Source of the DNA: an uncultured Eubacteriales bacterium
Lineage (GTDB): Bacteria; Acidobacteriota; Aminicenantia; Aminicenantales; Aminicenantaceae
DNA: 64,000 nt
Direction: 5' to 3'
Assembly: GCA_964445575.1 (NCBI GenBank)
Contig: CAYULB010000003.1
Location: 12,343 to 76,342, forward strand
Below the pieces are notes generated by a model. That model did not search any database. It saw only the letters and a list, made by a program, of their open reading frames with translations, and was not told the origin of the DNA. Below are positions 4,784 to 53,476 of the stretch, piece after piece. Within the stretch, counting starts at the first letter, position 1. Each line of letters opens with the position of its first letter. The translations under genes and the position numbers were made by a program.

Positions 4784-5947
4784 ATGTCACGTCAGATAAT
4801 TTATAAAACAGCCATAATTTTCATAATCGGAATCATAACTCTAACCGGAGGTCTCCAGCTGTACCAACACCGTCATTTTCAAACCCCCATTGTAGCGGGA
4901 CCCGGTGTTACCCAGGTAAAAAAGCTGAGTGAATATAGTCCTGATCTCAAAGGGACTATGACTGATACAAATATTTTTTTTCTTGAAGGCAAAAATCCAG
5001 GAGGAAAAATGCTGGTCATAGCAAACACCCATTCTAATGAACCGGCAGCTCTCCTGAGTTCTCTTATCTTTGTGGAAAATTCAATCGTAGAAAAAGGAAC
5101 TGTCATCATCATCCCCCAATTTAACAACAGCGGAGGCCGGAATACCCGCTCCGGTGATGGATATCCTCTTTATTTTCATATCAAAACTCAGTGGGGAAAT
5201 AAAAAATTCCGCATGGGCAACCGGGTGGCTTCACCCTTAGACCAATGGCCGGATCCGGATGTTTATGTCCATTATCCAGATAGACAGCTCCTCTCTTACT
5301 TAGATATTAGAAACACCAACCGCACCTGGCCGGGTAGACCAAACGGTGCCCTTATGGAAAAAGTAACCTTTGCCTGTATGGAACTTATTAGAAAAGAAAA
5401 CATTGACCTGGTCATAGATATCCATGGTGCAGAAACCATGTTTCCTGTTACAAATTGTATTGTGGCCCCTGAAAAATCTATGAGGATTGCTACCATGACA
5501 TCATTAACACTCAAAGCAAGAGAAGGATTTGATAATCATGTGGAGCCCTCCCCTAGGGGATTTCGAGGATTATCTCATAGAGAGATCGGGGATTTCTCTG
5601 ATGCCCTCCCTTTTCTCCTCGAAGCCCCTATCCCCTTTTTAGATCAGCCCACAGGCCCTAAAACCGTTGATCTTCTCCTAGAGGGAAAAGACCCTTTTCT
5701 TTTAAGGTTATCAAAAAAAGGTATGCTTTTTGTTCCCTATGACGAAAACGGGTGGTCCATGGCGAAACGAGTCGGTCAGCACTGTTCTGCTGTCCTTGAA
5801 ATCGCTGAACAATATTCACAAAAAAATTCGGATAGGGCTATAAAAATTTCTCATGCTCCCCGTTACGCAGAAGTGGTTAAAAATGGAGTTGGATTTTATT
5901 ATAAAGACCCTTCCAAAACAAATAAAAAAAATGTATTTTGTAATTAA
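4784..5947 (+). CDS. AstE/AspA-family (succinylglutamate desuccinylase/aspartoacylase-like) zinc hydrolase, membrane-anchored
   Basis: N-terminal TM helix. GGKMLVIANTHSNEPAA resembles the GG.HGNE zinc-binding motif of the AstE_AspA family. 387 aa. Confidence 0.4.
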   Translation: MSRQIIYKTAIIFIIGIITLTGGLQLYQHRHFQTPIVAGPGVTQVKKLSEYSPDLKGTMTDTNIFFLEGKNPGGKMLVIANTHSNEPAALLSSLIFVENSIVEKGTVIIIPQFNNSGGRNTRSGDGYPLYFHIKTQWGNKKFRMGNRVASPLDQWPDPDVYVHYPDRQLLSYLDIRNTNRTWPGRPNGALMEKVTFACMELIRKENIDLVIDIHGAETMFPVTNCIVAPEKSMRIATMTSLTLKAREGFDNHVEPSPRGFRGLSHREIGDFSDALPFLLEAPIPFLDQPTGPKTVDLLLEGKDPFLLRLSKKGMLFVPYDENGWSMAKRVGQHCSAVLEIAEQYSQKNSDRAIKISHAPRYAEVVKNGVGFYYKDPSKTNKKNVFCN

Positions 5948-6013
5948 GAAATTATTTATCTTTAATCTGAGGCATTCATCAGGAATGTCCAAGATTATAA
6001 AGGAGAAGACAGA

Positions 6014-6691
6014 ATGAACAAAATAAGGCCACTCACTTTATTTTTGTTTGTGGTTGGTTTTCTTTTTACTCTCCACATCGGACTGGTTAATTCTCAAGAG
6101 CTGCCCAAAGCTCAGCTCCCAGTACTCACTACCTCAGCGGGTCAGAGCCCTGATGTAACGACTTTGAATATTGTCTGCGAAGAAGCAGGAATTATGTATG
6201 ATTACGGCGATGTACCTGATGTGAGTATGATAAACGCTGGAGTAGGTCTTGGAGGAAAAGAATCTAAACCTGGTTTTCATGTAGAAATAAACACGGACCT
6301 GGAAAAATTTCCTGAAGGAACGAGTTATAAAACCATCATATTTGCCATCGGAGCCAGTTTGAAAGGAATGGGTGCTTCAGGGCTTACTGTAGAAGATGAA
6401 GTCAAAAGACTGAAAAATATCATTGACTACTGTAAAGAAAATAATATCCTTATCATTGGAATCCATGTAGGAGGAGTCTCCAAAAGAGGGGCTCCTGGGA
6501 GTGACAATGAAAGGATGATCAATGCAGTAGCTCCCTATTCAGACCTTCTTATCGTGACAAAAGAAAGTAATAAAGACGGACGCTTTACTGAGATTTCAGA
6601 AAACCATCAAATACCTTTAAAAGAAATTGACTATGCTCTAAACCTGGTACCTCTGTTGAAAGAAATTTTCAATAATGAGAGTTTTACTTAA
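6014..6691 (+). CDS. Secreted hypothetical protein (signal peptide)
   Basis: N-terminal signal peptide MNKIRPLTLFLFVVGFLFTLHIGLVNSQE. No recognisable catalytic motif. Confidence 0.4.
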   Translation: MNKIRPLTLFLFVVGFLFTLHIGLVNSQELPKAQLPVLTTSAGQSPDVTTLNIVCEEAGIMYDYGDVPDVSMINAGVGLGGKESKPGFHVEINTDLEKFPEGTSYKTIIFAIGASLKGMGASGLTVEDEVKRLKNIIDYCKENNILIIGIHVGGVSKRGAPGSDNERMINAVAPYSDLLIVTKESNKDGRFTEISENHQIPLKEIDYALNLVPLLKEIFNNESFT

Positions 6692-18210: not shown

Positions 18211-18435
18211 TGTTTATTTTTCACTTTCAATCAGTTTTTTGATAACTTCAACTGCTCTTTCAAAATGTCTTCCAGCTTGAATTTAACTTCAACAGGTTTC
18301 TGGTCTTTTTTCTTGCTGGCTTCCGCCTCATTGCTTTCTCCTCTCTTGAATTTTATGAATAATCCGGGTTGAACATAAAAACCTCACAGATATTGACGAA
18401 CTTCACAGCCTCATTCAGAACCGTAAAATTCTGAT

Positions 18436-19523: not shown

Positions 19524-19544
19524 AGCGGCATTGAATAGGCCAGG

Positions 19545-20204
19545 CTAAATATTAAAACAGTATAAGATCCCCACGCCAAATTCAAACCCCCCTATGTTTA
19601 CTTTGAAGGTGTTTTCCTTAGCCACAGCTCTTGAAAATCTCAACATGGCTCTTATTTTAATAAATTCAAACAAAGGGAGACGGTAATAGGCCCCGCCTTC
19701 TAGATGAATCCCTGGGGTCATCCCCGAAGCATTCTCTATGCTGCTCTTTTCTTTATAAAAAAACAAATCAATCCCCGCTCCTATGTAAGGACCAAAATCA
19801 CCTTTATTAACTATATATTTTCCAGTCAAAGATACAGGAGTCATTGAAAAAAAAGTGTTCTTATGGGTTATCGTTGAATGTCCTGATTTTGAAAAGCTTC
19901 TTACCTCAAGAGTCACGCCCAGTGAATTATTCTTATTTGAATCTAAAATATGTGATGCTTCGATTCCGGCAACTGTGCCTTTATTTCCAAAAATCTCCTT
20001 AAATCGGTCTGAAGCAACTCTAAAATTTCCTAAGGTAAACCCCGCCATGGTGTTTCCTGAATTCACGGGACTTATCTCTTTTGACAAGTCATCTTCTTGA
20101 AAAGCCGTTACATAGGAAACCAAGAGAAATATCATTGCTGCGGTTAAAAACAAACATAAAATTCTTTTCATTTGACAGAACCCACCACCACAATATTTGA
20201 ACAA
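19545..20204 (-). CDS. Putative outer-membrane beta-barrel protein (OmpW/OmpA-like)
   Basis: Signal peptide plus alternating amphipathic beta-strand pattern. 219 aa. Overlaps upstream gene by 37 nt. Confidence 0.45.
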   Translation of the reverse strand: MFKYCGGGFCQMKRILCLFLTAAMIFLLVSYVTAFQEDDLSKEISPVNSGNTMAGFTLGNFRVASDRFKEIFGNKGTVAGIEASHILDSNKNNSLGVTLEVRSFSKSGHSTITHKNTFFSMTPVSLTGKYIVNKGDFGPYIGAGIDLFFYKEKSSIENASGMTPGIHLEGGAYYRLPLFEFIKIRAMLRFSRAVAKENTFKVNIGGFEFGVGILYCFNI

Positions 20205-23364: not shown

Positions 23365-24291
23365 ATGAGAAACGAAATGAAAAAGAAGCTGTTCTATTTT
23401 CTTCCTTACATAGGTTTATCCAGTCTGGTTTTATCCAGCTTTCTCCTTTACGTTAAAGTTCCTTTTATGAAGACCTGGTTTTACAGCTGTGGATGGTGGT
23501 CTATCATCCTCTTAATGGACGGAATCAATTTCAGGCTCCAAGGATCTTCTTTTCTTTCCCGCTCTCACAAATTATTCTCAGCTTCTGCCCTTTTATCTGT
23601 ACCGGTTTGGCTGGTGTTTGAACTTTTCAATATATCATTACAAAACTGGAGGTACCTCAACCTGCCTGACTGTATCATTGAAAGGTGGGCAGGATATTTT
23701 ATAGCCTTTGCCACGGTTATTCCTGCCCTGGTCGAACTCTCCGAGTTCTTTAAGGGAATTCTCCCTAAAAAAAATCTCTCTCTCTTCCAGGTAAAAACAG
23801 GCTCTGCTTTGCTCACTGTATTTTTTTTAATGGGGATTGCCTTTCTTGTACTCCCCCTTGTTTTTCCTGCATACTTTTTCCCTCTGGTATGGCTGTGCTT
23901 TATTTTTATACTGGAACCCGTTAACTATAAACTGAACCTCCCCTCTATTCTTAAAAAATTTGAAACCGGCAGATGGAATGATTTTTGGTGCTGGTGTTTA
24001 TCAGGATTGACCGCCGGCTTTATCTGGGAATTTTTAAACTTCTATGCGGGAAGCAAATGGGAATATTCCATCCCTTATTTTGATTTTGCTTATATTTTTG
24101 AAATGCCTCTTCTGGGTTACTTTGGATTCATTCCCTTTGCCCTTGAAATTTTCGCGATTTTCCAGCTGTTTCTCTGGATTAGGAAAAAGCTCTCCCGTAA
24201 AGTCACCCTCAGATATTTCATCACTGCAGCTGGATTTATTTTTAACTTCATTATGTTTTACCTCATAGATGTTCACACATCCCACTTCTAA
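23365..24291 (+). CDS. Polytopic integral membrane protein, unknown function
   Basis: 308 aa, about 8 hydrophobic helices, Trp/Phe rich. No motif recognised. Confidence 0.4.
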   Translation: MRNEMKKKLFYFLPYIGLSSLVLSSFLLYVKVPFMKTWFYSCGWWSIILLMDGINFRLQGSSFLSRSHKLFSASALLSVPVWLVFELFNISLQNWRYLNLPDCIIERWAGYFIAFATVIPALVELSEFFKGILPKKNLSLFQVKTGSALLTVFFLMGIAFLVLPLVFPAYFFPLVWLCFIFILEPVNYKLNLPSILKKFETGRWNDFWCWCLSGLTAGFIWEFLNFYAGSKWEYSIPYFDFAYIFEMPLLGYFGFIPFALEIFAIFQLFLWIRKKLSRKVTLRYFITAAGFIFNFIMFYLIDVHTSHF

Positions 24292-24366
24292 CTTGGACTA
24301 TTCAAAATTCAAGGTAATGAAAAACCATCTACCATTTACTTTTTTTTACGGACCGGATGAATTACC

Positions 24367-26322
24367 CTAAATGGTCTCTTTCAGTAATTCATCAAGACTA
24401 GACTTTTTTTTCTCCCAAATACTGTAGAGTTCTTTCAATTCTTTCTCGATCTGCCCCAGCTCTTTTTGAAGAGAAACCACGTACCTGCCATTTCTATGGG
24501 TTTCTGTGAGACAAAAAATATCTTCTATTTCTTTCTTGCGCTCTTCCAGATTTTCAATTCTCTCTTCTAAGTTAGATATTTCTGTTTCAAGCTGATTTCT
24601 TTCTCTGCTTATTTCCTGTCTCTTTTCAGCTTCTATCCTTTTTTGCTCTTTTGTTTTTCTTTTTGATCTGCTGGCTTTATTCTTTTCCTCCTGATCCTCT
24701 GGAGCTGCTGAGTAAAATGACTCAGATAAGGAAGTCCTTTTTTCTAGATAATAAGAGTAATCTCCCACATACTCATTTATTTTTTTATCTTTTATTTCAA
24801 CCACCCTTGTTACCAGCTTATCAAGAAAATATCTATCGTGAGAAATCACCATTAAAGTCCCTGGGTAGCTTTTTAAAGCTTCTTCCAGAGCCTCCAATGA
24901 TGAAGGGTCCAAATGGTTAGTGGGCTCATCCATGATTAAAAAATTTACCTCAGATAAAAGCAATTTCACAAGCGAAACCCTTGCTTTTTCTCCTCCTGAA
25001 AGAACACTTATCTTTTTCTCTATATCATCTCCCCGAAATTGGAAAATGCCCAAAGCTTCTCTTATCCTGGGTATATTTTCTGCCGATACTGAGCGGACCA
25101 CTTCTTCGAAAACACTGGCTTTAAGGTCCAATTCAAAAGCCTGCTGCTGAGCATAATAACCGATTTTTGTTCTTTTACCCCATTCTATAGTTCCTTTTTG
25201 GGGGTTTAACTTCCCTGCGATCAAACGGGCCAGGGTAGTTTTTCCAGCCCCATTCTCTCCTACTAAGGCTATTTTATCCCCCCGGCACACATGTAAATTT
25301 ACATCCTCGAGCACCCAGTCTTGGTCATATTTAAAGAAGAGGTTCTTGATAATCAATACATCTTTATAGCTTTTCTCTCCTATTCTTAAATCAAAACTCA
25401 GCTTATTTTCCTCTGATGGGATTTCAATTTTTTCCATTTTTTTTAAGTGTTTGATACGGCTTTGGACTTGAGCTGCTCTGTCTTTCTTGTATCTGTACTT
25501 TCGGATAAATTCTTCCTGTCTCCTTATTTCTGATTGTTGATTCTCCCACTTCTTTCTCAATTGTTCTTCTCTTTTTTTCTTTTCTTTCTCATAATAACTG
25601 TAATTTCCAGCGTAATAATCAAGCTGTCCTCGATTCAATTCATAAATATTCTCAGCCAACCGGTCTATAAAGAACCGGTCATGAGAAACAATGACCAGGG
25701 TGCCCGAAAAATCAAGCAAATACTGTTCAAGCCACTCCAAAGAAGGCAGGTCCAGATGATTGGTGGGCTCATCCAAAAGGAGGAGGTCGGGATTCTGAAT
25801 AAGGATACGGGCCAGATGAACTCTCATTTGCCATCCCCCGCTGAATTCAGAAAGATGCCTTTCAAAATGCCTTTCTTTAAAACCAAGACCTGAAAGCACA
25901 GCTTTGGCCTGGCTCTCTAATTTATATCCTCCCAGAGCTTCGAAACTCTGCTCACACTCACCTAATTGTTTTAATGAATGTTCATTTGGTTGGGATTGTG
26001 AATCCAGTTTGTTGTGCAGCTCTTTGATTTTTTCCCCTAAAAAATACACCTCTTTTCGTGCTTTTATGACTGAATCCAAAAGAATGCCTCCCTCGATATC
26101 GATTTCTTCCTGGGGGAGACATCCGATATTATATTTTTTAGGTTTTATAATGCGGCCTTTATCAGGCTTTATTTCGCTGTTTATTATTTTCAATAAAGTT
26201 GTTTTTCCACTCCCATTAGGGCCTATCAAAGCATTTCTTTTCCCTCGAGGAATAGACCAATCGACTCCCTTCAGAAGCTTTAAATCTCCGATAGAATAAT
26301 GAATATCTTTAACCTGAAGCAT
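24367..26322 (-). CDS. ABC-F family ATPase (Uup/YheS-like, two ABC domains, C-terminal coiled coil)
   Basis: Two Walker A (GPNGSGKTT; GENGAGKTT). Two signature motifs (LSGGWQMR; LSGGEKAR). Linker and basic/coiled-coil tail. No TMD. Confidence 0.9.
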   Translation of the reverse strand: MLQVKDIHYSIGDLKLLKGVDWSIPRGKRNALIGPNGSGKTTLLKIINSEIKPDKGRIIKPKKYNIGCLPQEEIDIEGGILLDSVIKARKEVYFLGEKIKELHNKLDSQSQPNEHSLKQLGECEQSFEALGGYKLESQAKAVLSGLGFKERHFERHLSEFSGGWQMRVHLARILIQNPDLLLLDEPTNHLDLPSLEWLEQYLLDFSGTLVIVSHDRFFIDRLAENIYELNRGQLDYYAGNYSYYEKEKKKREEQLRKKWENQQSEIRRQEEFIRKYRYKKDRAAQVQSRIKHLKKMEKIEIPSEENKLSFDLRIGEKSYKDVLIIKNLFFKYDQDWVLEDVNLHVCRGDKIALVGENGAGKTTLARLIAGKLNPQKGTIEWGKRTKIGYYAQQQAFELDLKASVFEEVVRSVSAENIPRIREALGIFQFRGDDIEKKISVLSGGEKARVSLVKLLLSEVNFLIMDEPTNHLDPSSLEALEEALKSYPGTLMVISHDRYFLDKLVTRVVEIKDKKINEYVGDYSYYLEKRTSLSESFYSAAPEDQEEKNKASRSKRKTKEQKRIEAEKRQEISRERNQLETEISNLEERIENLEERKKEIEDIFCLTETHRNGRYVVSLQKELGQIEKELKELYSIWEKKKSSLDELLKETI

Positions 26323-26424
26323 AATCCATTTTCCTCTTTATATTCTTCATACAATCTAGCAAATATGCAGTTTATTGAAAAGAGTTAATTAAAAAGGAGG
26401 AAATTCATATCAGCTGGCCTATTA

Positions 26425-26550
26425 GGTAAAAAAATGGCGATTAAAATGAAAAATAAAAACAAAAGTAATGTTCAGATAAATGTTCTTGAAAAAGTCTTGC
26501 ATATCGCAAAGAAGAGAATAATAATGAGGGCATCGCCATTTTTTGATGGT
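26425..26550. repeat. ~125-bp intergenic element, copy 1, bounded by perfect 13-bp inverted repeats (AAAAAATGGCGAT...ATCGCCATTTTTT)
   Basis: Inverted repeats at 26429-26441 and 26532-26544. Interior ~75% identical to 53322-53445. Confidence 0.55.
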
Positions 26551-26596
26551 CAGTCCATGTTCACATGGATTATTCATGAGTCAAGGAGATTAAAAT

Positions 26597-27751
26597 ATGA
26601 CCAGAAAATTCAAAAACATTGAAACAAAAATCATCCACTCTGGAGACCCCAAGCCGCCTATAGAGGGAGCGGTGTGCATTCCTATTTTCCAGAGCTCTAC
26701 CTATGAATACAGGGATAAGGATAAGGATTCTGAAGTCAAATACATTCGATTGAGCAACACGCCCAATCATAAAGCCCTACATGAAAAACTGGCTGCTCTT
26801 GAAAACGCTGAGGCATCCTTAGTGACCGCAAGTGGAATGGCAGCCATAGCCACTACATTGTTAACCGTACTTTCTCCCGGCAAACATTTTTTAGCACTGG
26901 ATTGTTTATACGGAGGCACCAAGGGACTTATCAACAACCTTTTAAAAAAGCTTCATATAAGCCATGACCTTATAGATGGGAATAATCCTGATACCTGGGA
27001 GTCTCAATTAAAGCCTGAAACCAAAGCCATATATGTGGAGACCATCACCAATCCCCTTCTCCAGGTCCCAGACCTTAAATCCGTGGTTAAGTTTGCTCGA
27101 AACAATAATCTTGTTTCCATCATAGACAATACCTTTGCCTCTCCCATCAACTTCCGTCCTCCTGAACTCGGGTTTGACCTTTCCCTGCACAGCTGCACAA
27201 AGTATTTAAACGGACATTCCGATATTGTAGGAGGAGCCGTGATAGGAAAAGCTGGGATTATCAATAAAATAACAGAGAATTTAAAACATCTGGGAAGCCC
27301 CATGGATCCCCATGTATGTTTTCTCCTTTTCAGGGGAATCAAAACCCTGGCTTTAAGGGTAAGGTTCCAAAACTCAAGCTCATTAAAAATCGCGAGTTTT
27401 CTGGAATCTCATGACAAGGTCAAAAAAGTTAACTACCCAGGTCTTAAAAACCATGCCCAGCACAATTTAGCAAAAGATCTATTGGATGGATTTGGAGGAA
27501 TGATCAGTTTTGAATTAAAAGGAGGCCTTAAAGCCGCCGAACAATTCATGGATCGCGTAAAGCTGGCTTATATTGCCCCCAGTTTAGGAGGAGTTGAAAC
27601 CCTTATAACCAGACCTGTGCTGACTTCCCACAGAGGACTTTCTCCAGAAGATAAAATTAAATCAGGCATAACAGATTCGTTGATAAGAGTGTCTGTGGGA
27701 ATTGAAAACCCAGAAGATATTATCTCTGATTTTAATCAGGCTTTAGGGTAA
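26597..27751 (+). CDS. PLP-dependent Cys/Met-metabolism enzyme (cystathionine gamma-synthase/beta-lyase / methionine gamma-lyase family)
   Basis: 384 aa. SCTKYLNGHSDIVGG PLP-lysine region. Family-typical length. AAGGAG RBS. Confidence 0.85.
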   Translation: MTRKFKNIETKIIHSGDPKPPIEGAVCIPIFQSSTYEYRDKDKDSEVKYIRLSNTPNHKALHEKLAALENAEASLVTASGMAAIATTLLTVLSPGKHFLALDCLYGGTKGLINNLLKKLHISHDLIDGNNPDTWESQLKPETKAIYVETITNPLLQVPDLKSVVKFARNNNLVSIIDNTFASPINFRPPELGFDLSLHSCTKYLNGHSDIVGGAVIGKAGIINKITENLKHLGSPMDPHVCFLLFRGIKTLALRVRFQNSSSLKIASFLESHDKVKKVNYPGLKNHAQHNLAKDLLDGFGGMISFELKGGLKAAEQFMDRVKLAYIAPSLGGVETLITRPVLTSHRGLSPEDKIKSGITDSLIRVSVGIENPEDIISDFNQALG

Positions 27752-27796: not shown

Positions 27797-28328
27797 ATCG
27801 ACTTTGCTTCCGAGTTCGGACTGGAATACATCATTCTGGATGAAGGCTGGTCAAAAACGACACACATTGTCACGGAACCCAATCCTGATATCAACATCAG
27901 GGAACTTATTTCGTACGGAAAAGAAAAGGGGGTGGGTCTTATCTTATGGCTTTTGTGACACACTATCCAATTATTATAAAGAAAGAGAATGCACTGAATT
28001 CATCTCAAATATTCCAGTGATATGGGACGAAACCATAGTTCTGAAAGCTGATATTTCAGAATACATTTTGCTGACTAGAAGAAAGGATGAGAATTGGTAT
28101 GTGGGAGCTCTCACCAACTGGACTCCCCGCAATTTTGAGCTCAATCTCTCTTTCCTGGATGATGGAGCTTACAGCGCAGTCATCATGAAGGATGGAATCA
28201 ATGCTCATAAACACGCTCAAGATTACCAAAAGACCGAAAAAGAAGTGACCGCCACAAGCTCTCTCAACATAAAAATGGCTCCCGGAGGAGGCTGGGCTGC
28301 CCTATTGACCAAAAAGCAAGAGAACTGA
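27797..28328 (+). pseudogene. Glycoside hydrolase family 97 (SusB-like alpha-glucosidase) remnant with internal deletion/frameshift
   Basis: Frame A (27797-27958): IDFASEFGLEYIILDEGWS...GKEKGVGLILW (GH97 catalytic barrel) then stop. Frame B (to 28328): EYILLTRRKDENWYVGALTNWTPRNFELNLSFLDDGAYSAVIMKDGINA (GH97 C-terminal domain). About 450 of ~650 aa missing. Confidence 0.65.
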
Positions 28329-30103: not shown

Positions 30104-30808
30104 TCATATTCCATAAGGAATGTCCTGTTCCAAACGGATTTTAAGTAAAAAGATGGTGTCTTTTTTTAGATTGTTCTTTGCCCAAACTTTCTGTTTTTCA
30201 TCCAAAAGTTCGCCCATACCGGAAAGAATATTTTGTTCGCTAAGGGAACCAACGAATTCAATACATTTTGCAAGATAGTTAGCAAAATTCAACTTTGTTC
30301 TTTTCTCCACAATTTCTTTATTGATCGGCCAGTGATTTTTCAAAAAATACCAGACATCGTAGACATCCCGATGAGCTGTCCTGGAACGTTCCAGCATGGC
30401 TACCAGCTTATGTGCGAATATATCCTCTTTAATCATTACCACCATGGATATACCAAGATAATTTTGGACCTCATACCGGGAGCCAAAACTCCTTCGGTTC
30501 ATTTCGATTTTAATATTGGGCGCTTTTTTTTCATAGGAAACAATGAAGAATAAAGTGTTATACTTTTGATACTTTTCCTTAATGGTCCCGTATTCTTGAA
30601 GAATTTTTTCCAATCTCTCGAAAACAATAGCGTTTTCTTCTTTTTTTAAAAGATCAAAATCAAGATCTACTGAAAAACGGCCGAGATTGTAAAATAAATG
30701 AGCAGCTGTTCCTCCTTTAAGTCCTAAAAAAGGGCCAAGGGAGGTATCTGTGTATATATCTTTTAGAATCTGAAGCAGTATTGATTTATGAATATTTCGA
30801 TCAAGCAT
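30104..30808 (-). CDS. AbiEii/AbiGii-family nucleotidyltransferase toxin (type IV TA)
   Basis: N-terminal LGPFLGLKGGTAAHLFYNLGRFSVDLDFD nucleotidyltransferase motif typical of DUF1814/AbiEii. Confidence 0.7.
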   Translation of the reverse strand: MLDRNIHKSILLQILKDIYTDTSLGPFLGLKGGTAAHLFYNLGRFSVDLDFDLLKKEENAIVFERLEKILQEYGTIKEKYQKYNTLFFIVSYEKKAPNIKIEMNRRSFGSRYEVQNYLGISMVVMIKEDIFAHKLVAMLERSRTAHRDVYDVWYFLKNHWPINKEIVEKRTKLNFANYLAKCIEFVGSLSEQNILSGMGELLDEKQKVWAKNNLKKDTIFLLKIRLEQDIPYGI

Positions 30809-30810
30809 TT

Positions 30811-31389
30811 TTAAGCCATTTCACAATATGACATCAATCTTTTTTCCATTGCCTTGTTTTTATAGATAGAAATCATTTCAAAACATCTATCCCAATCTAT
30901 TGAAGACAGGTTGTCAAAATAATAATTCCTACTTAAATAGACAGTGTCTAAAAAGGCTCTTTCTCGGGATGCTGTGAAATAATTGTTTTTTCTCTCCAAT
31001 CCAAGAGAATTTGTTAAAATCGCATCTTTTATTTTTCGAAAAACATATCTTTGGCCGTCACAAGTAATCTCTCGCGTTAGGTAACTCACCACAAATATTT
31101 GGTCATAGTGCTGGAAAACAATACCTTCTCTAGATAAAACAGTTTCAAGGCTGATATAGGAAGGAGTGTATATTTTATTGGCCAGTTCCAGACGGTCATA
31201 ATTTCTATCCTTAGCATAAATGCCTTTTCGGATAGAATAGAGCTCTTTGTTTTTTACATAGTAGTTGATGCGTCTTTTGAGAAGAGCAACATTGGTTTCT
31301 CCGGATGACAAGAGAATATCTTTAAATGTAAAGACTGTATTCCCTTTACGGAGAATGCTTAAAATACTGGCTTTTTCCATCGTTATCAA
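30811..31389 (-). CDS. AbiEi-family antitoxin/transcriptional regulator (type IV TA)
   Basis: Typical AbiEi N-terminus (ILSILRKGNTVFTFKDIL...LKRRINYYVKNKELYSIRKGIY). Immediately upstream of AbiEii with a 2-nt gap. Confidence 0.7.
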   Translation of the reverse strand: MITMEKASILSILRKGNTVFTFKDILLSSGETNVALLKRRINYYVKNKELYSIRKGIYAKDRNYDRLELANKIYTPSYISLETVLSREGIVFQHYDQIFVVSYLTREITCDGQRYVFRKIKDAILTNSLGLERKNNYFTASRERAFLDTVYLSRNYYFDNLSSIDWDRCFEMISIYKNKAMEKRLMSYCEMA

Positions 31390-31429: not shown

Positions 31430-31681
31430 CTAAATATATGTCAAGATAGCCGGCCTGAAAGACATATCCTGAGAGGCTGACTTTTCCTTTGCGGACATTG
31501 TACCAATAGTATGCAGGTGGTTCTGTTTCTGAAAATAGAACTTGGGGATAGGTTTTCCCAATAAAGATACTTCTCCCTCGTAGCCATATTCCCGATTTAT
31601 TGAGGCACTCATTTTTGCGAAGAGTCTTGTGATGAACCTAAAATAATCTTGCGTTTCGCAGAAAATAATTACATAATACAA
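31430..31681 (-). CDS. Hypothetical ORF at island left junction
   Basis: 83-aa ORF, no motif recognised. May be a remnant of a disrupted gene. Confidence 0.2.
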   Translation of the reverse strand: MYYVIIFCETQDYFRFITRLFAKMSASINREYGYEGEVSLLGKPIPKFYFQKQNHLHTIGTMSAKEKSASQDMSFRPAILTYI

Positions 31682-31776
31682 ACGTCGCCATTTTTATGAA
31701 TTAATCATATGCATACCCCACCAAGAACAATGAAAATGACATGTTTTTGCCATTTTTAAAGTAATGAGGAGGAAAT

Positions 31777-33456
31777 ATGAAAAAGATATTCTTGCCTAAT
31801 AAAAGCATTTTGTCACTTGAGCAGTTTAGTCGTGTTATTGTCCTACTCGCATGCGCTATGCTGCTCTTTTTTCAGGTGGTCTGCAGAAGGCAATCTCCTC
31901 CAGATCAAAAGGAGGTCGAAGCTCAGCCAGGAGTTTCTACTCATGCCTTAGTCGGCGGCGGAGAAACCGGCGATCTGTTCCATTCTTTTCTCAAACATCA
32001 ACAAGACGGGTCGACATACAACATTCAATCCACAGCCTCCCGACTCTTACAGCAAAATGACCTTGTTCCTTTCCTCAAGCGCTTAATCAATGAAGGCGAT
32101 CGGGAAGCCCGTGCAGATGCTGCTTCGGTTCTAGCATGGGTCTCGGATCCGTCGGTTCTGGCAAGGGTCTCAAAATCCGATGTCCGCTATAAGGTCCTGA
32201 AAAAAGAGTTCCCGGATCGTTTGGCCGGCCTATCTGACGATCCTTACTGGCGTGTCCGCGCCAATGCGGCATTCGCCCTAGGCAAACTCGGATCCGGAGA
32301 CGGCGCCCCGGCTAGAACCCTGGAGAATTTGACCGAAGACAAAGATCCCCGTGTTCGCGCAGCGGCGACTTTTGCCCTTGTTGAAGCAGGGGTAAAAGGT
32401 GCTGTCCCCAGGATAGAGGCCCGCCTGGCTGACATGATACCTGACGTCCGGATTGTCGCCGCAAACGCACTGGGCGTTCTGAAAAGCACGGACGCCGTAC
32501 AATTGCTTCTCCAGGCTATGCATGATCAGCATCCTTTGGTTAGATCTGTAACCTACAGGGCACTCCAAAACATGGGCCCGGCCGCCGCGGAAGCGGTTCC
32601 AAACCTTATCGACGCCGCCTCCCGCGATTACCGTAATGAACGAGTCGCCCTCGAGGCACTCGTGAAGATCATCGGAGAAATGAAGCAGCCTCTCTCTGAT
32701 CCTGAATGGATACACGCCCTGGGTGAACGGGCCGGTGCGCTTGCCGGGCATCTTAGAGATACCCGCCGAGGCCTGCTCAGCCGCGGCCTGTCGGAATCCC
32801 TGGTAAGGATCGCGGGTTGGCTGGGACCGGAGGATCGCAAGCGTTTTATCGATGACCTCGAGCTTCTCGATACCCGAAAAGACCAGAATTTCCGAAACCT
32901 CCATTTCGTCCTGGCGGGGATGTCTCAGCCAGGTCCCTTGCGCCAACGACTTCTAAGCAAGCAGAATGAGCAGGAGCTTCTGGAGAAGCTGGACCATGAG
33001 GATTCAACGGTCCGCCGTGCGGCTGCCATCGCCCTGGCGGAAGGCCGTCCTGACACGGTAATTCCCGCATTGCTCAAGGCTCTTTCCTGTCCCGATCCCC
33101 TAGCAGGGCTGGCCGCGGCACAGTCTCTTGCTTCTTTTGGGAAGCGGTCTGTAGACGGATTGTTGATGCAATTGGACAACCCGGACACATTGGTGCGGAT
33201 CCTGGCATGTTATGGCTTGGCACGGACTTGGGCCGATGAACGGCGCCCCATGGCTGACCAGAAAGGAATAGAGACATTGAGAGTCCTAGCCGGCGATTTT
33301 GAGCAACCATTCGAGTTGCGCCAGCTCGCCTGGTGCGCATTGAACAGCATTTTGCGCGAACCCAGTCAGCTCTGTGACCCAGAAATCTTTCTTGCCAGCC
33401 TTCTGGACCGAATGGCCCTGCCGGATGAGGAACCAGCTCTCAATGACCATCAGTGA
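31777..33456 (+). CDS. Exported/membrane-anchored HEAT-repeat (PBS-lyase type) protein
   Basis: N-terminal hydrophobic segment. Many D.D..VR..AA.ALG repeats (DPYWRVRANAAFALGKLG; DPRVRAAATFALVEAG; DSTVRRAAAIALAEG). Confidence 0.7.
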   Translation: MKKIFLPNKSILSLEQFSRVIVLLACAMLLFFQVVCRRQSPPDQKEVEAQPGVSTHALVGGGETGDLFHSFLKHQQDGSTYNIQSTASRLLQQNDLVPFLKRLINEGDREARADAASVLAWVSDPSVLARVSKSDVRYKVLKKEFPDRLAGLSDDPYWRVRANAAFALGKLGSGDGAPARTLENLTEDKDPRVRAAATFALVEAGVKGAVPRIEARLADMIPDVRIVAANALGVLKSTDAVQLLLQAMHDQHPLVRSVTYRALQNMGPAAAEAVPNLIDAASRDYRNERVALEALVKIIGEMKQPLSDPEWIHALGERAGALAGHLRDTRRGLLSRGLSESLVRIAGWLGPEDRKRFIDDLELLDTRKDQNFRNLHFVLAGMSQPGPLRQRLLSKQNEQELLEKLDHEDSTVRRAAAIALAEGRPDTVIPALLKALSCPDPLAGLAAAQSLASFGKRSVDGLLMQLDNPDTLVRILACYGLARTWADERRPMADQKGIETLRVLAGDFEQPFELRQLAWCALNSILREPSQLCDPEIFLASLLDRMALPDEEPALNDHQ

Positions 33457-33468
33457 GGAGATCTAGCT

Positions 33469-34596
33469 ATGAAAAATTATCAAAGAAACAGGAAATCGAT
33501 TTTAAATCCAAAGGCCTGCCGTTATACGGCTTTGTTATTCGCGGGCGTTATGTTACTTGTGTCCATCGGTCACATCAGCGCCGAGAAGCTCCTTTTCCTG
33601 ACCTCCCTAGGTGGAGCCCGCGTCGCCGTGGACCATCAGATGAGGGTCTTTCCACCGCCGCCCGAGGAGGAACTGCTACTCATCATTGTGTATCCGCATC
33701 CAGACCAAGCCTTTTCCTTCGACGCTGGCAGCCCCGGGGAGCTTCGTATCGAGAGAGCCGTAGCCTTGGTCTTACCTGAAGAGTATGCCATAGAGTATGC
33801 CGACGAGATCGAGTGGTCAATCGATGACATAGGTGGGACACAGGCCGAAATCACGCCCGATCGCGGACCTGTCGTTGACATGGTCTTTCGAGGTCTTCCA
33901 GATCAAAACGATGACTTCGGAGAGAAGCGAATCACCGCGGCCGTCAGGGGCGTTTCTGACAGCGTCACCGTCCGGGCTTTCTTCGATCCACAGGCACAAA
34001 ACCATCCTGGAGGCGATAGTGAGCCGAACTGGTTTTATTATTGGAAGCAGATTGACAGCATTATTGGTGATCGTGATCGAAGCAGGTTAAGATACGAAGC
34101 TGGATTACAAGGTGAGGGAGGAGCACTGGTCACAGGCCAGTATAGATTTCCGCCTGATATCGTCATTCTTTCCGATGCCATTCTCAGTGCGAGCTGTGCT
34201 CAACGTATGATACCGACACGCCCTGGGCCGGGGCCGCACACATATGTTCCCACAGGCGTAAATGCGACAGGCATAGATTGTTTTGCAGAATCTGTTTGGC
34301 ACGAATGGCAGCATCGAGAGGACATGTTTAATTGGTGGGGATCCAGACTCAACTATGCGGTGAAACGAAACCTTTGGGAAGATTATGAAGACAAAGACAA
34401 CGATGATGTTCCACGCCACTATGAAGAGGCTGTGGGTTGGAGTGACAATTTCCCCCGTTGTAGCCCGAGTAGACCCTATCCCATTGTGAAGGATAATGAA
34501 TCTTATTCTTACTGGACAGGCTGGTTGTGGCAAATTAGTGCAGCCGATCACCAGGACTGGTCGCGGGACGGGAAACAGTGGCCAAGTGGCCAGTAA
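33469..34596 (+). CDS. Membrane-anchored hypothetical protein with HExxH (HEWQH) zincin-like motif
   Basis: N-terminal TM (YTALLFAGVMLLVSIGHI). SVWHEWQHRED motif followed by acidic stretch. 375 aa. Confidence 0.5.
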   Translation: MKNYQRNRKSILNPKACRYTALLFAGVMLLVSIGHISAEKLLFLTSLGGARVAVDHQMRVFPPPPEEELLLIIVYPHPDQAFSFDAGSPGELRIERAVALVLPEEYAIEYADEIEWSIDDIGGTQAEITPDRGPVVDMVFRGLPDQNDDFGEKRITAAVRGVSDSVTVRAFFDPQAQNHPGGDSEPNWFYYWKQIDSIIGDRDRSRLRYEAGLQGEGGALVTGQYRFPPDIVILSDAILSASCAQRMIPTRPGPGPHTYVPTGVNATGIDCFAESVWHEWQHREDMFNWWGSRLNYAVKRNLWEDYEDKDNDDVPRHYEEAVGWSDNFPRCSPSRPYPIVKDNESYSYWTGWLWQISAADHQDWSRDGKQWPSGQ

Positions 34597-34606
34597 TCGA
34601 AAACAG

Positions 34607-36532
34607 GTGAACCGGAAGAACAGCGGAGAATTGTGGCCGGCTCTTCTTGCCGGTGTTTGCCTTTTCGTCCCCCTGGTTTTTGATCCCCGGGGCCACCTTC
34701 CGTTCTTTCCGCCCAAGGAAGCCGTCCTTCTCTTCGGCGTTTCCCTGGCGGCGGCTGCCGTGGTCATCTGCAGGCTCCGGAGTAATAGCGCTTCAAGGAT
34801 TTTTTCCGCAACCCGGCTGCGACCTGACGTCACCATTCTTCTCCTGATGGCTTTGTTCTGGATCTGGAGCATCGCGGCCCCCTTGATGAAGATGGAGTCG
34901 GCAGCCGTTCACCTTCGGGGCACCATAAGGCTCACCGCGCTGGTCGCACTGGCCTTAGGTGCTGCGGCTGCAGCCGCAGCCGATCCGCGTTGGAGGGAAC
35001 GTTTTGCAACAGTAGCCGCCCTTCCCGCGATCGTCATGGCGTTACATGCCCTGTTTCAGGCAGCGGGATGCGATCCGCTTAACATCTTTGGGTACGAGCT
35101 GTCCGATCTGAAAGGAAGGTGGCGTGTCTTCACCACCACGGGCAATCCCAACTGGACAGCCGGCTATCTGGCAGCTACGTCGCCGCTTCTGGCTTGGGTG
35201 GTCCACCGCGCCATATGGTTCAGGAAACCTTGCTTGGCGTGGATTGCGCAGGCATCCGTCTGGTCAATTCTGACTGCAGCGGTGCTGACAACCGGATCAC
35301 GTCTGGGCCTGGCGGCGCTACTAGCCTCCGCTTTCTTGTGGTGGCAACATTTTAGATTTTCCTCGCTCTTCAGGAGGATAGGGACATTTATTGCCTGTAG
35401 TGCCCTTGCCGTCCTGATCGGGGTTGTGTCGGGATTTATTACTGCAGAACGCTTAACAGACAAGGCTTCAGTGGCGGGTCGCCTGATCTACGCACGAGCG
35501 GCGTGGGTCCTGATGGCAGACGCTCCGGTTACAGGCAGGGGGCTCGACCAATCAGGGCGGCTCCTTCCGAATGGCTTAGGTGAAGTCGTACCCCGACTTG
35601 GGCCGGGATGGACACCATGGATTCCAAAGACCCTTCTCGCTCGTGTGCCGAACGGCCTGCTTGAAACTACCATCGAGTCAGGCATAGTGGGTACGGCGCT
35701 TCTACTGGCCCTCTGGGCAATGGGACTGCACCGTGCGCTCTCCCGCAGCCGTGCCTGGAAAGGAGACCTTGTCCCTCTCGAAGCAGCCCTTGCCGGCGTT
35801 CTTGCCGCAACGGCAGTGTTGGCAATTGGGGACACACCTCTTCATAACCCCAACTTGGCGGTCTCTTTCTGGATGGTGGTGGGACTTTTAGCCGGTGGAG
35901 CTATCCGAGAGCAGATCAAGGCGCCGACCGTCACCGCTGAAGCGAATAGGTCATGGTCAGGGCGGGTTTTATATTTAGTACTAGCCGCAGCGGTACTCAT
36001 AGGCGCCTGGACCGCCGTGCGGCAGGGCTTAGTTACGCTAATCGTCAACCGTCAAGCCTACCAGGCACATGCGGCCTTCATCTATAACCGTGACGCTGAC
36101 GCGGAACGGATTTTTCGCAATATCCTGTCCCTCGATCCCACCCATCACGAATCATCTGTGGTTTTGAGCTGGTACTTGTTAGAGCAGGATCATCCACTGG
36201 AAGCGCTTGACCTGCTCGATCGCACGGAGCATTATGCTGTCTCGGCGGAAGCTTGGCTTGTCCGAGGGATTGCACTCCGTGACGCCGGCCGTCCGAAGGC
36301 CGCAGTTTCTGTGTTGGAGAATGCCGTAGCCGCAATTCCTGACCTTATGCGTGCCCACATCCTGCTCGGTGATATTTACGACGAGTTGGGTGACGCCCAG
36401 AGGGCAATGGAAGCTTACCGTCTTGTTCTGGAGAGCCCTCAAAATTCACCTGAGGCCCTCGCCTGGAAGGTACGCGTGCAGAAAAAGCTTTCCTGGCTCG
36501 ACTCCTGGGAAGAGCTGGATTTCAATTGGTAA
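34607..36532 (+). CDS. Wzy_C/O-antigen-ligase-like polytopic membrane protein with C-terminal TPR repeats
   Basis: About 10 TM helices with large periplasmic loop typical of Wzy_C (WaaL/PglL superfamily). C-terminal TPR-like repeats. Start is uncertain (GTG at 34607; ORF track 34496 overlaps the upstream gene). Confidence 0.65.
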   Translation: MNRKNSGELWPALLAGVCLFVPLVFDPRGHLPFFPPKEAVLLFGVSLAAAAVVICRLRSNSASRIFSATRLRPDVTILLLMALFWIWSIAAPLMKMESAAVHLRGTIRLTALVALALGAAAAAAADPRWRERFATVAALPAIVMALHALFQAAGCDPLNIFGYELSDLKGRWRVFTTTGNPNWTAGYLAATSPLLAWVVHRAIWFRKPCLAWIAQASVWSILTAAVLTTGSRLGLAALLASAFLWWQHFRFSSLFRRIGTFIACSALAVLIGVVSGFITAERLTDKASVAGRLIYARAAWVLMADAPVTGRGLDQSGRLLPNGLGEVVPRLGPGWTPWIPKTLLARVPNGLLETTIESGIVGTALLLALWAMGLHRALSRSRAWKGDLVPLEAALAGVLAATAVLAIGDTPLHNPNLAVSFWMVVGLLAGGAIREQIKAPTVTAEANRSWSGRVLYLVLAAAVLIGAWTAVRQGLVTLIVNRQAYQAHAAFIYNRDADAERIFRNILSLDPTHHESSVVLSWYLLEQDHPLEALDLLDRTEHYAVSAEAWLVRGIALRDAGRPKAAVSVLENAVAAIPDLMRAHILLGDIYDELGDAQRAMEAYRLVLESPQNSPEALAWKVRVQKKLSWLDSWEELDFNW

Positions 36533-49185: not shown

Positions 49186-51273
49186 CTATTTACATTGTTT
49201 TGTCAAAATCAAATTTCCAAATTTCCCGACTACAGCTTTCCATGCCGGTCCAAATACAGTGGTTGACTCTCTCTCTTCAATCACTGCAGGCCCTTTTATT
49301 AAATGTCCGCACATCAACCTGTCTCTTTCATAAATCCGACATTCCAAGTTTTTATCCCCGATCCACACCTTTCTCAATTCTTTATGTCCGGGACATTTGT
49401 TTTTTCCGACTTTCTCAATGTTATTGAATGCAGGCTTCTTTCTGACCTCAAGGGCTTTTATCCTTAAATTGACCACTTGGATTTCTTCTTCAGGAGCTTT
49501 GTGTCCGTATATCTTTTCATGCTGTTCATGAAACTTTGATTTTGTATTCGCAATATCTGATTCTGACAAGAAATGCGCAGGCATACTGATATTTAATTCA
49601 TAGTTCTGTTTGGCTAATCTCATATCTGCACTGATTAGCACTTTTTGGTTCTTTTCTAAAACCTGGTGTTCCTCAAACCATTTTTGGCTCTTCTTCTTAA
49701 GAGAAGACAAACCCTCATTTATTTGCTCTCTATTTTTTTCTAAGCTCACCATGAGAGTCTCGGCAAAATCTGTGCTCATGTCAGCAAAGAGCAGCCCCAA
49801 GCTTGAAAACAATCCTGCCATTCTAGGAATCACCACTCGGGATATAGACATTCTTTCAGCTAACTCAAAAGCATGAAGAGGCCCTGCCCCCCCGTAAGCT
49901 ATTAAAGTAAAATCTCTCGGGTCATGCCCTCGAGAAATGGATAAAAGGCGAAGTATCCTCAGCATGCTGGCATTGGCAATGGAAATAATGCCAAATGCAG
50001 ATTCAACCTCACTCATGTTCATGGGACCACCCAGCTTCTTTGAGATGGCTTCATGTGCCAGCTTTTTTTCCAGCTTCATCTCCCCTCCTAAAAAATTTGT
50101 AGGGGAAAGTCTTCCCAGCAGAAGATGGGCATCTGTCACAGTCGGGTTTTCTCCTCCTTTCCCGTAACCTGCCGGACCCGGATAAGCTCCAGCACTTTGG
50201 GGGCCCACTTTTATGTGCCCTCCTTTATCAATCCAGGCAATACTTCCCGCCCCAGCTCCGCATTCAACCACATCTATCATGGGAGTCCTCACAGTATATC
50301 CGCTTCCTTTCTGCCTCCCCCCCGAGTGAAGCTCTCCTCCAACTTCATACTCTGGAGTATAAGCAAGAACATTGTTTCGTATCATCCCGGCTTTAGCAGT
50401 GGTCCCACCCATATCAAAGGCAATCACTTTATCCATTCCAAGCTTCTTGGACAGATTCAAAGCTCCGATCAGACCTGCGGCAGGGCCTGATTCAATAAGA
50501 GTATGAGGCTTGTCTTCAGCCCGTTCTGGATCTGATACCCCTCCTCCGGAATGCATAATGGCCAGGGGTATGGATTTCCCTCCTGCACAGCTTAGTTTCT
50601 CTCTTATGGCTCTTAGATAATTTATTACTTTAGGAGCAACCGCTGCAGCTATAACCGTTGTGGATGCTCGTTCATACTCACGAAATTCTGGAGAGACTTC
50701 ATGGGAGAGGTATATTGGCTTTCCGCCTAATATTTTTTGGGCTGCTTTCTTAATCTCAGTTTCATGTTCTAGCACATTAAAGGAGAAAATAAGCACCACG
50801 GCCAACGCTTCAATATCTTCATTTTTCAGTTCTTTTAATTTTCTTTCTGCGTCTTTCTTGTTTAGAGACAGAAGAATTTTCTTATCAGCAGTAATTCTCT
50901 CTTGAACCTCCTTGACAAGATATCTTGGAACCAAAGGGATTTTCCGGTCTTCCATCAAATCATACAAATCAGGACGCTGCTGCCGGCCGATTTCTAAAAT
51001 ATCTTTAAAACCTTGAGTGACTATCAATCCGATTTTGGAAGTCTTCCCTTCCAATAAAGAATTGGTCACAATGGTAGTCCCGTGTATAATGATTTTAACA
51101 GCTGATATTTTCTTCCCTGCCTCACAAAGAACCTTGGTGAGTCCTTTAATAAAGGCTTCCTCAGGATTTTCAGGTGAAGATCTGACTTTTGACTTCCAAA
51201 ACTCTCCTGTTTTATCATCATAGAGGATGGTATCTGTAAAGGTTCCTCCGATATCAACAGCTGCCCTTATCAT
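49186..51273 (-). CDS. hyuA: Hydantoinase/oxoprolinase family protein, HyuA-type subunit
   Basis: N-terminal DIGGTFTDT actin-like ATPase fold. 695 aa. Overlaps hyuB by 4 nt. Confidence 0.85.
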
Positions 51274-53054: not shown

Positions 53055-53321
53055 ATACTTTATTTTAGGTCAAAAAAGGACAAAGCCTGACTGTTGCATT
53101 CAGATAGAATTCACAAAGAAACTTTATGGACAGAATCACTCCTATTGACAGGAAATGTTTATTCAACATATTATAATTAAGAAAAGATGTTGAACGAATT
53201 AACCTGGACTATTCACGAGTCAAGATTGCGGCAGATGCGAGGCATCAGAGCATGAAGTCGTGGTCCTTCACTGCGAATGCCCTGTAACGAAGCAGATGCC
53301 GTGAGATCGGCTCGCCTCAAT

Positions 53322-53445
53322 GGTAAAAAAATAGCGATTAAAATAAAAAATTCAAATAAGAAAAATGTTAAGACATTGTTCTTGAAAAAATCTTGTCTAT
53401 TGCTGAAAATAAATTGATAATGAAAACATCGCCGTTTTTTTTATG
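53322..53445. repeat. ~125-bp intergenic element, copy 2 (imperfect inverted repeats AAAAAAATAGCGAT...ATCGCCGTTTTTTTT)
   Basis: About 75% identical to 26425-26550 across the interior (e.g. AATGTTAAGACATTGTTCTTGAAAAAATCTTG). Located in a divergent intergenic region upstream of CocE/NonD gene. Confidence 0.5.
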
Positions 53446-53476
53446 AATAGTTCAGGTTAGAAAGGAGGTACTGATT

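Follow-up and report, generated by a model that had tools for sequence, protein, structure and literature searches.

An intergenic repeat before a PLP-enzyme gene, probably a truncated copy of a MITE family of Aminicenantes-type bacteria

The 64-kb stretch of DNA analysed here, which we call the window, carries an A-rich intergenic sequence just upstream of a PLP-enzyme gene and again upstream of an S15 peptidase gene, raising the question of what kind of repeat this is. A preliminary description had drawn it as an element of ~125 bp with 13-bp terminal inverted repeats and a separate conserved box, and had suggested a MITE-like mobile repeat or a shared cis-regulatory or structured-RNA element. 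We propose, with a probability of about 85%, that the sequence is an old copy, truncated at its 5' end, of a MITE (a non-autonomous DNA transposon) whose family is specific to Aminicenantes-type bacteria. The family is a new one of a well-known kind of element, and in the literature we found no paper linking Aminicenantes and MITEs.

Copies in the window and anatomy of the element

We recovered three copies of the element from the window (Table 1), the third of which, a partial copy, was absent from the preliminary description. The flanking genes named there, an ABC-F gene and the PLP enzyme at copy 1 and hydantoinase B and the S15 (CocE/NonD) peptidase at copy 2, proved correct, as did the likeness between the two loci, which extends over ~154 nt at ~78% identity between copy 1 and positions 53306-53460 (nhmmer matches of the window copies, E 3e-45 and 5e-43). 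The 13-bp repeats, AAAAAATGGCGAT (26429-26441) and its partner ATCGCCATTTTTT, are indeed perfect reverse complements in the sequence. They are not terminal: homology continues ~20 nt to the left and ~15 nt to the right of them, and the 13-mer is the inner half of a 28-bp terminal inverted repeat. The extent first drawn was too small, and its boundaries and anatomy were wrong.

The true ends of the element are CCTGGAyTATTCA and TGAATAGGTCAGG. In its short form the element measures 146 bp: an A-rich cargo of ~90 nt is bounded by a contiguous 28-bp terminal inverted repeat (CCTGGAyTATTCATAAAAAAATGGCGAT ... ATCGCCATTTTTTTATGAATAGGTCAGG), and the outer left end leads directly into AAAAAAATGGCGAT. 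In the commoner long form, of ~253 bp, a GC-rich module of ~100 nt splits the left arm into an outer part of 13 bp and an inner part of 14 bp. The distance from the left terminus to the T-run, ~237 nt in 39 copies and ~130 nt in 7, separates the two forms, and full lengths cluster at 253 and 146 bp.

Copy 1 is a long form from which the left 100 nt are missing; what remains is the last ~20 nt of the GC-rich module, the A-rich cargo between both inner repeats, and a right terminus that has degenerated. Copy 2 is full-length, its inverted repeat having one G.T pair and one mismatch, and copy 3, a remnant of the promoter side, sits 70 nt upstream of a HEAT-repeat gene (ATG 31777). An apparent fourth copy at 1670-1858 was a chance match within the A-rich 5' part of an rpoD-like coding sequence.

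Table 1. Features of the element copies in the 64-kb window and of the genes beside copies 1 and 2
Feature	Position	Strand	Description
Copy 1 (the sequence under study)	26407-26557	+	family HMM, nhmmer E 2.7e-27, model positions 104-254
Inner-left inverted repeat, copy 1	26428-26441	+	AAAAAAATGGCGAT
Inner-right inverted repeat, copy 1	26532-26544	+	ATCGCCATTTTTT
Promoter-like site, copy 1	26497-26525	+	TTGCAT (26497-26502), 17-nt spacer, AATAAT (26520-26525)
Left-terminus fragment of a second truncated copy	26564-26588	+	CATGGATTATTCATGAGTCAAGGAG; family left-end consensus
Copy 2	53203-53456	+	full-length long form, 254 bp, from CCTGGACTATTCA to TGAATAGTTCAGG; family HMM, nhmmer E 4.4e-76, model positions 2-258 (53201-53458)
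Left flank of copy 2, TTAA	53199-53202	.	one copy of the target-site duplication
Right flank of copy 2, TTAG	53457-53460	.	second copy of the duplication; matches the left flank at 3 of 4 positions
GC-rich structured module, copy 2	53216-53314	+	rod-like hairpin, 4 helices; RNAalifold and pair counts, 66 copies
Inner-left inverted repeat, copy 2	53325-53338	+	AAAAAAATAGCGAT
Inner-right inverted repeat, copy 2	53428-53442	+	ATCGCCGTTTTTTTT
Promoter-like site, copy 2	53393-53421	+	TTGTCT, 17-nt spacer, GATAAT; promoter scan, 9/12 matches
Sigma-70-like site outside copy 2	53145-53174	+	TTGACA, 18-nt spacer, TATTAT; 11/12 matches
Copy 3	31639-31707	+	promoter-side remnant, model positions 184-249; TTGCGT (31649-31654), 17-nt spacer, CATAAT (31672-31677), then CGTCGCCATTTTT and degenerate terminus
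Solo left-terminus-like sequence	24292-24304	+	CTTGGACTATTCA; between two convergent genes
Solo right-terminus-like sequence	19532-19548	+	TGAATAGGCCAGG, then CTAA
ABC-F gene	24367-26322	-	left neighbour of copy 1
Cys/Met PLP-enzyme gene	26597-27751		right neighbour of copy 1
Hydantoinase B gene	51270-53054	-	neighbour of copy 2
S15/CocE-NonD peptidase gene	53477-55459		neighbour of copy 2

The conserved box, previously placed at 26567-26592, does recur at 53205-53228, and a weaker recurrence is found at 24289-24313. It had been taken for a separate motif lying on opposite sides of the two copies; it is the outer left terminus of the element, its sequence (TGGAyTATTCAyGAGTCAAG) comprising that terminus and the first helix strand of the GC-rich module. 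In copy 2 the box occupies the normal left-end place, and it appears on the right side of copy 1 because a second, truncated copy abuts copy 1 there. Such head-to-tail elements were also seen in other loci (L092 4464-5003, L034, L025, L070 and L096) as in window copy 1 (26545-26588), the right terminus being followed by the next left terminus within 3-4 nt and the junction forming a perfect hairpin. The left-terminus fragment beside copy 1 includes AAGGAG (26583-26588), 8 nt ahead of the ATG at 26597, which is likely the ribosome-binding site of the PLP-enzyme gene.

Solo terminus-like sequences (Table 1) are probably remnants of further element copies; if 1 mismatch is allowed, CCTGRNYTATTCA is matched 10 times in the window, where 1.9 matches would be expected. 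Another solo terminus-like sequence of the family was observed at 18356-18368.

Across subfamilies the inner repeats differ and stay complementary (ATGGCGAT/ATCGCCAT, GTGCCAATG/CATTGGCA, ATGTCGAT/ATCGACAT, TATGTATGC/GCATACATA and TCAGCCTGC/GCAGGCTGA), a pattern that fits either co-evolving transposase sites or selection for the stem. The cargos of the subfamilies differ as well, and one subfamily has none. We also observed a second, unrelated palindromic repeat (GTCATTGCGAGCGACCGCAAGGGAGCGCGGCAATC...CGCTTCGCTCCTCGTAATGAC), nested in the GC-rich module of one locus (L083, ~5700-6070) and lying beside the element of another on the minus strand (L021), indicating that these genomes hold at least two small repeat families.

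Distribution, target sites and mobility

We searched one genome per species with the pattern TCTTG-N20-22-ATAAT-N4-6-CRTCGCCRTTTTT and obtained at least 97 matching stretches. Among the matches listed, all but one, a chance match, came from 11 MAGs, whose labels read Candidatus Aminicenantes, Acidobacteriota or uncultured; CSMAG_1216 alone contributed at least 31 loci, and the family HMM gave 157 matches within the pattern-derived loci. The coding regions of the window are 66-75% identical to those of these MAGs, suggesting that the window comes from a related organism. A recent local duplication, which would also account for two similar copies in one window, was ruled out because the family occurs in at least 11 genomes. 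Many near-identical copies were found within a single genome, which points to recent bursts. Many contigs, those of CSMAG_1216 included, terminate within the element, and the Logan contigs that encode the peptidase of the window (L003, L004) start 73 nt upstream of the gene, within copy 2; these breaks are explained by the fragmentation of short-read assemblies at a multi-copy repeat. The element is thus a practical nuisance, breaking short-read assemblies and yielding spurious small ORF calls.

Insertion takes place at YTAR sites and leaves a 4-bp duplication. Of 51 non-redundant copies, 18 had the same 4 nt on both sides outside CCTGG...CCAGG, where 4.5 would be expected, and none of 20,000 permutations reached 18 (maximum, 13). 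The duplicated sites were CTAA, TTAA, CTAG and TTAG; a TA duplication had been considered and was replaced by the 4-bp YTAR duplication after the flanks were compared.

Comparison of related loci revealed filled and empty sites. The element at L065 7235-7491 is missing from the corresponding sites of L091 (flanks 98% and 92.5% identical) and L061 (flanks 88% and 82% identical), and the one in L067 stands between two TTAA tetranucleotides at a site that in L059 is a single TTAG. L021 and L034 differ by reciprocal insertions, one of which lies between genes that abut in the other genome. A short-form copy occupies the same site in L077 and L097, directly before CTAAGGAGG and an ATG, in MAG DNA that is 95% identical over 5.9 kb, suggesting that some insertions are old and retained. 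For the three copies of the window itself we found no orthologous empty site; a metagenome scan with the S15 peptidase gave 80 loci, at most 62% identical, with no hydantoinase synteny and no element copy in 434 kb.

Together the 4-bp YTAR duplications and the empty sites argue for a true MITE with IS5-like target choice. Five of six MITE features were found, namely terminal inverted repeats, small size without a transposase gene, many dispersed copies, target-site duplication and presence/absence polymorphism; the sixth, a parent IS or transposase with the termini of the element, was absent from ~750 kb of loci. The mobile-repeat suggestion of the preliminary description is therefore well backed: the element is multi-copy, has terminal inverted repeats and 4-bp target-site duplications, and is missing from orthologous sites in related genomes.

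Our search for a parent element covered DNA between paired termini 2-3.6 kb apart, which contained ordinary genes (PEP carboxykinase, MATE transporter, helicase, XerD and others), and long multi-copy repeats, none of which was present in the 97 loci. In L093 (1852-1974) the GC-rich module is cut at model position 124 and followed by an IS3/rve-like integrase fragment (...DITYIR...YLVVITD). This IS3-like fragment looks like an unrelated insertion and was rejected as a parent.

A DDE transposase supplied in trans would move the element. IS5 elements duplicate 4 bp at the target 5'-YTAR-3' (PMC5009759), and our element shares both the length of the duplication and the motif. We regard IS5 descent as a lead and not a result, since no IS5-type transposase with the termini of the element was found in the loci examined and those termini (CCTGGA...) have no known resemblance to the ends of IS5.

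Gene orientation, promoter-like cargo and coding potential

If the elements were randomly oriented, their right and left ends should face gene starts in equal fractions. Scored with a crude ORF caller, the right end faced a gene start in 79 of 103 cases (77%, p = 5e-8) and the left end in 22 of 58, the 36 to 22 split on the left being near random. The same bias held for right ends not selected by the search pattern (14 to 5, n=19). A ribosome-binding site and the start of a long ORF lay within 40 nt of 31 of 123 right ends, compared to 2 of 82 left ends.

The cargo of the subfamily to which copy 1 belongs contains the hexamers TTGCAT-17 nt-AATAAT, preceded by A-tracts, and promoter-like hexamers stand in the same register in all three window copies (TCTTG-N21-ATAAT-N5-CRTCGCCRTTTTT). 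From the gene-facing bias of the right end and these hexamers we infer that the cargo is a portable sigma-70-like promoter that would fire out through the right end. The conservation of the -35 and -10 is in part by construction, because the search pattern required both cores, and AT-rich DNA often resembles promoters. The site in copy 1, with 8 of 12 consensus positions, fell below the threshold of the promoter scan and was not called; it is directed at the PLP-enzyme gene (ATG 26597), and that of copy 2 at the S15 peptidase gene (ATG 53477). The inner-right repeat of copy 1 lies just downstream of the -10-like hexamer and so would start any transcript made from the element promoter.

Subfamilies with other cargos likewise adjoin gene starts, suggesting that the position bias may partly reflect YTAR sites at the edge of Shine-Dalgarno sequences (CTAAGGAGG). 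As YTAR would be common there, insertions may often fall between a promoter and its gene, and an insertion that separates a gene from its own promoter would persist mainly when the right-end promoter of the element faces the gene. Three genes of the window, those for the PLP lyase, the S15 peptidase and the HEAT-repeat protein, would be driven or boosted by element promoters. A strong, near-consensus sigma-70-like site between the hydantoinase B gene and copy 2 (Table 1), better than the one inside copy 2, reads into the left end of copy 2; it is probably the original promoter of the S15 peptidase gene, which would place copy 2 within the 5' UTR. A terminator scan detected no intrinsic terminator in copy 1 or copy 2.

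We considered whether the repeat could instead be the operator or promoter of a regulon, with a factor that binds two ATCGCCATTTTT boxes ~103 bp apart and co-regulates genes of amino-acid and peptide catabolism. Allowing 1 mismatch, we counted 6 occurrences of the 12-mer in the window, where 0.93 would be expected; the boxes flank the promoter-like site, and all three downstream genes are found on the same side. A regulon is hard to reconcile with ~100 copies or more before unrelated genes in at least 11 genomes, with near-identical copies within a genome, or with target-site duplications and empty sites. The boxes, moreover, belong to a terminal repeat that continues outward, and they change among subfamilies while remaining complementary, so that a stem fits them better than a protein site. 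We rejected the regulon reading, which is scarcely credible on this evidence. Of the earlier proposal of a shared cis-regulatory element, what stands is that the element carries promoter-like sequence; it is neither a regulon operator nor a known riboswitch.

The A-rich interior might also encode a small protein, of 39 residues by consensus (MAIKIKNKNKKKVSIIILEKILHITEKKIIIKTSPFFYE) and of 62 residues in copy 1, where the 62-codon ORF noted before is present at 26434-26622. The consensus frame is open in very AT-rich DNA, with 7 stops against 126 and 170 in the other frames (29 copies summed), and GGAG or AAGG precedes the 39-codon ATG by 7 nt. An ORF ending at the TAG of the terminal repeat is retained in 25 of 46 unique copies, and retention was slightly above simulation (24 of 29 vs 19.3, P = 0.04). 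Both ends of the ORF, however, are set by the inverted repeat and not by coding. Substitutions at codon positions 1, 2 and 3 numbered 138, 109 and 127, which is no third-position excess; premature stops interrupt the ORF in 17 of 46 copies, and length changes shift the frame in others. Copy 2 has ATA where the ORF needs its ATG, as already noted in the preliminary description, and the cargos of other subfamilies are unrelated. On the pattern of substitutions over codon positions and the frequency of premature stops we rejected the small protein as very improbable, in agreement with the earlier view that the element is non-coding.

The GC-rich module and comparison with known systems

We aligned the GC-rich module from 66 distinct copies and analyzed it with RNAalifold and pair counts, using 500 shuffles and slid controls. 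The module forms a rod of four helices with 31 pairs, 14 of which show compensatory double changes, and 96.5% of cells are paired. Double-change cells numbered 81, compared to 17 ± 4.4 in shuffles; none of the 500 shuffles reached the observed value on any measure, and the slid controls paired 29-46%. The signal is specific to one strand: G.U exceeds A.C by 309 to 14, and the paired fraction falls to 82% on the other strand. The outer 13-bp stem is strand-specific in the same way (G.U 70, A.C 2). The sense RNA of copy 2 folds with -76.2 kcal/mol (z -5.25) into outer stem, GC rod and inner stem, so that transcription from upstream is predicted to give a sense-strand three-way junction. Without the module, copy 1 shows weak structure (z -2.3). 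The structured RNA of the preliminary description thus finds its signal in the GC-rich module, lost from copy 1, and not in the A-rich stretch that had been highlighted.

A known riboswitch class had also been raised as a possibility, and the element does lie upstream of a Cys/Met-metabolism gene, where an S-box might be expected. Rfam gave no match at gathering score in the whole window, and a permissive scan of copy 2 with its flanks (53150-53520) gave a best E of 0.49, at 22.8 bits against a gathering score of 58. The repeat is neither a riboswitch nor a regulon signal.

We weighed whether the element is in the main a structured RNA, be it 5'-UTR regulator, sRNA or ribozyme, and merely repeated, with the A-rich region as part of the RNA. 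The sense-strand covariation of the module and outer stem is strong, as is the fold of copy 2; the elements are mostly in 5' UTRs in sense orientation, and a native-looking promoter reads into copy 2. Against this, Rfam has no family that fits, the A-rich region is weakly structured, copies 1 and 3 sit before genes without the module, and the duplications and empty sites mark spread by DNA transposition. As a replacement for the MITE such an RNA is unlikely, and it is possibly an added layer more than a rival.

The one-strand covariation also bears on the enzyme. The element might be a hairpin moved as single-stranded DNA by an HUH (Y1) transposase, as are REPINs by RAYTs or the miniature derivatives of IS200/IS605, its hairpins being recognition structures. 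Over its full length the element forms one long imperfect hairpin, covariation in the module and the outer stem keeps the pairing on one strand only, and the subfamily inner repeats differ yet remain complementary; like REPIN and REP elements mobilised by RAYT, the element is short, intergenic, abundant and non-coding, with long hairpins and compensatory stem changes. HUH elements, REPINs among them, leave no target-site duplication, and they insert beside a fixed tetra- or pentanucleotide; REPINs have a conserved GTAG head and a linked Y1 transposase gene. Our element, in contrast, makes 4-bp YTAR duplications, the mark of staggered double-strand cuts by DDE enzymes; its termini begin CCTGG with no conserved GTAG head, and no Y1 transposase was seen in the loci. 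The near-random orientation of genes at the left flank is likewise a poor fit to a replication-strand bias. We consider HUH movement quite improbable and retain the MITE moved by a DDE transposase, even though DDE cut-and-paste leaves the conservation of a strand-specific hairpin unexplained.

This sense-strand-specific covarying module is the one feature of the element beyond the ordinary. More speculatively, and with rather less than even odds in our judgment, the module with the outer and inner stems might be a new structured RNA riding a DNA transposon and acting in sense transcripts, within a self-contained mobile cassette that would terminate or process transcripts and re-initiate them. 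The module might act as an insulator or stabiliser, as a site of processing or as a small ribozyme, and so uncouple the element from transcription that arrives from upstream, after which the cargo promoter would restart expression. If this were true, Aminicenantes would use the cassette to drive a sizeable share of their genes, including the foreign high-GC island behind copy 3. With covariation on one strand only, the element lends itself to a clean test of RNA-level constraint on a DNA transposon.

The best functional analogy for the element is found in the Correia elements of Neisseria (CREE/NEMIS), which are likewise ~100-200 bp long, present in at least 100 copies and mostly located just upstream of genes. 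Correia elements duplicate TA in place of 4 bp at YTAR, and their terminal repeats are probably different; the host phylum also differs, and the Aminicenantes element is unlike them in its modular build, its left arm being split by a GC-rich module of ~100 nt that covaries. Promoter-bearing MITEs are known, Correia being one example: these are small non-coding repeats with terminal repeats of ~26-30 bp, abundant upstream of genes and equipped with outward sigma-70-like promoters, and their paired ends in mRNA are substrates of RNase III (PMC10969869, PMC2649163). By analogy, the folded RNA of our element may undergo processing, or it may insulate the messages on either side. The BOX, RUP and SPRITE repeats of Streptococcus pneumoniae are likewise modular (boxA-B-C), are predicted to form stable RNA structures, and nest or cluster (PMC10969869). 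Their sequences and host are unrelated, and BOX lacks the clear terminal repeats and YTAR duplications of the element.

Aminicenantes (OP8) are abundant in sediments and uncultured. A MITE of this density, ~1 per 15-20 kb, with one right end in four lying within 40 nt of a start codon, would contribute promoters and 5' UTRs to their genomes on a major scale.

Two side observations concern genes near the copies. Just downstream of the PLP enzyme, a 174-residue ORF (27804-28328) has as its sole match PF14509, the GH97 C-terminal oligomerisation domain, and may be a truncated gene or pseudogene. Beginning 70 nt past copy 3, and preceded by an AbiEii toxin gene (30104-30808) with a partner ORF (30811-31389), is a three-gene block (31950-36530) of 50-62% G+C compared to ~32-42% around it. 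Its genes encode a HEAT-repeat protein (31777-33456), an ORF without assignment (33469-34596) and a Wzy_C/TPR protein (34496-36532), and the block looks like acquired DNA.
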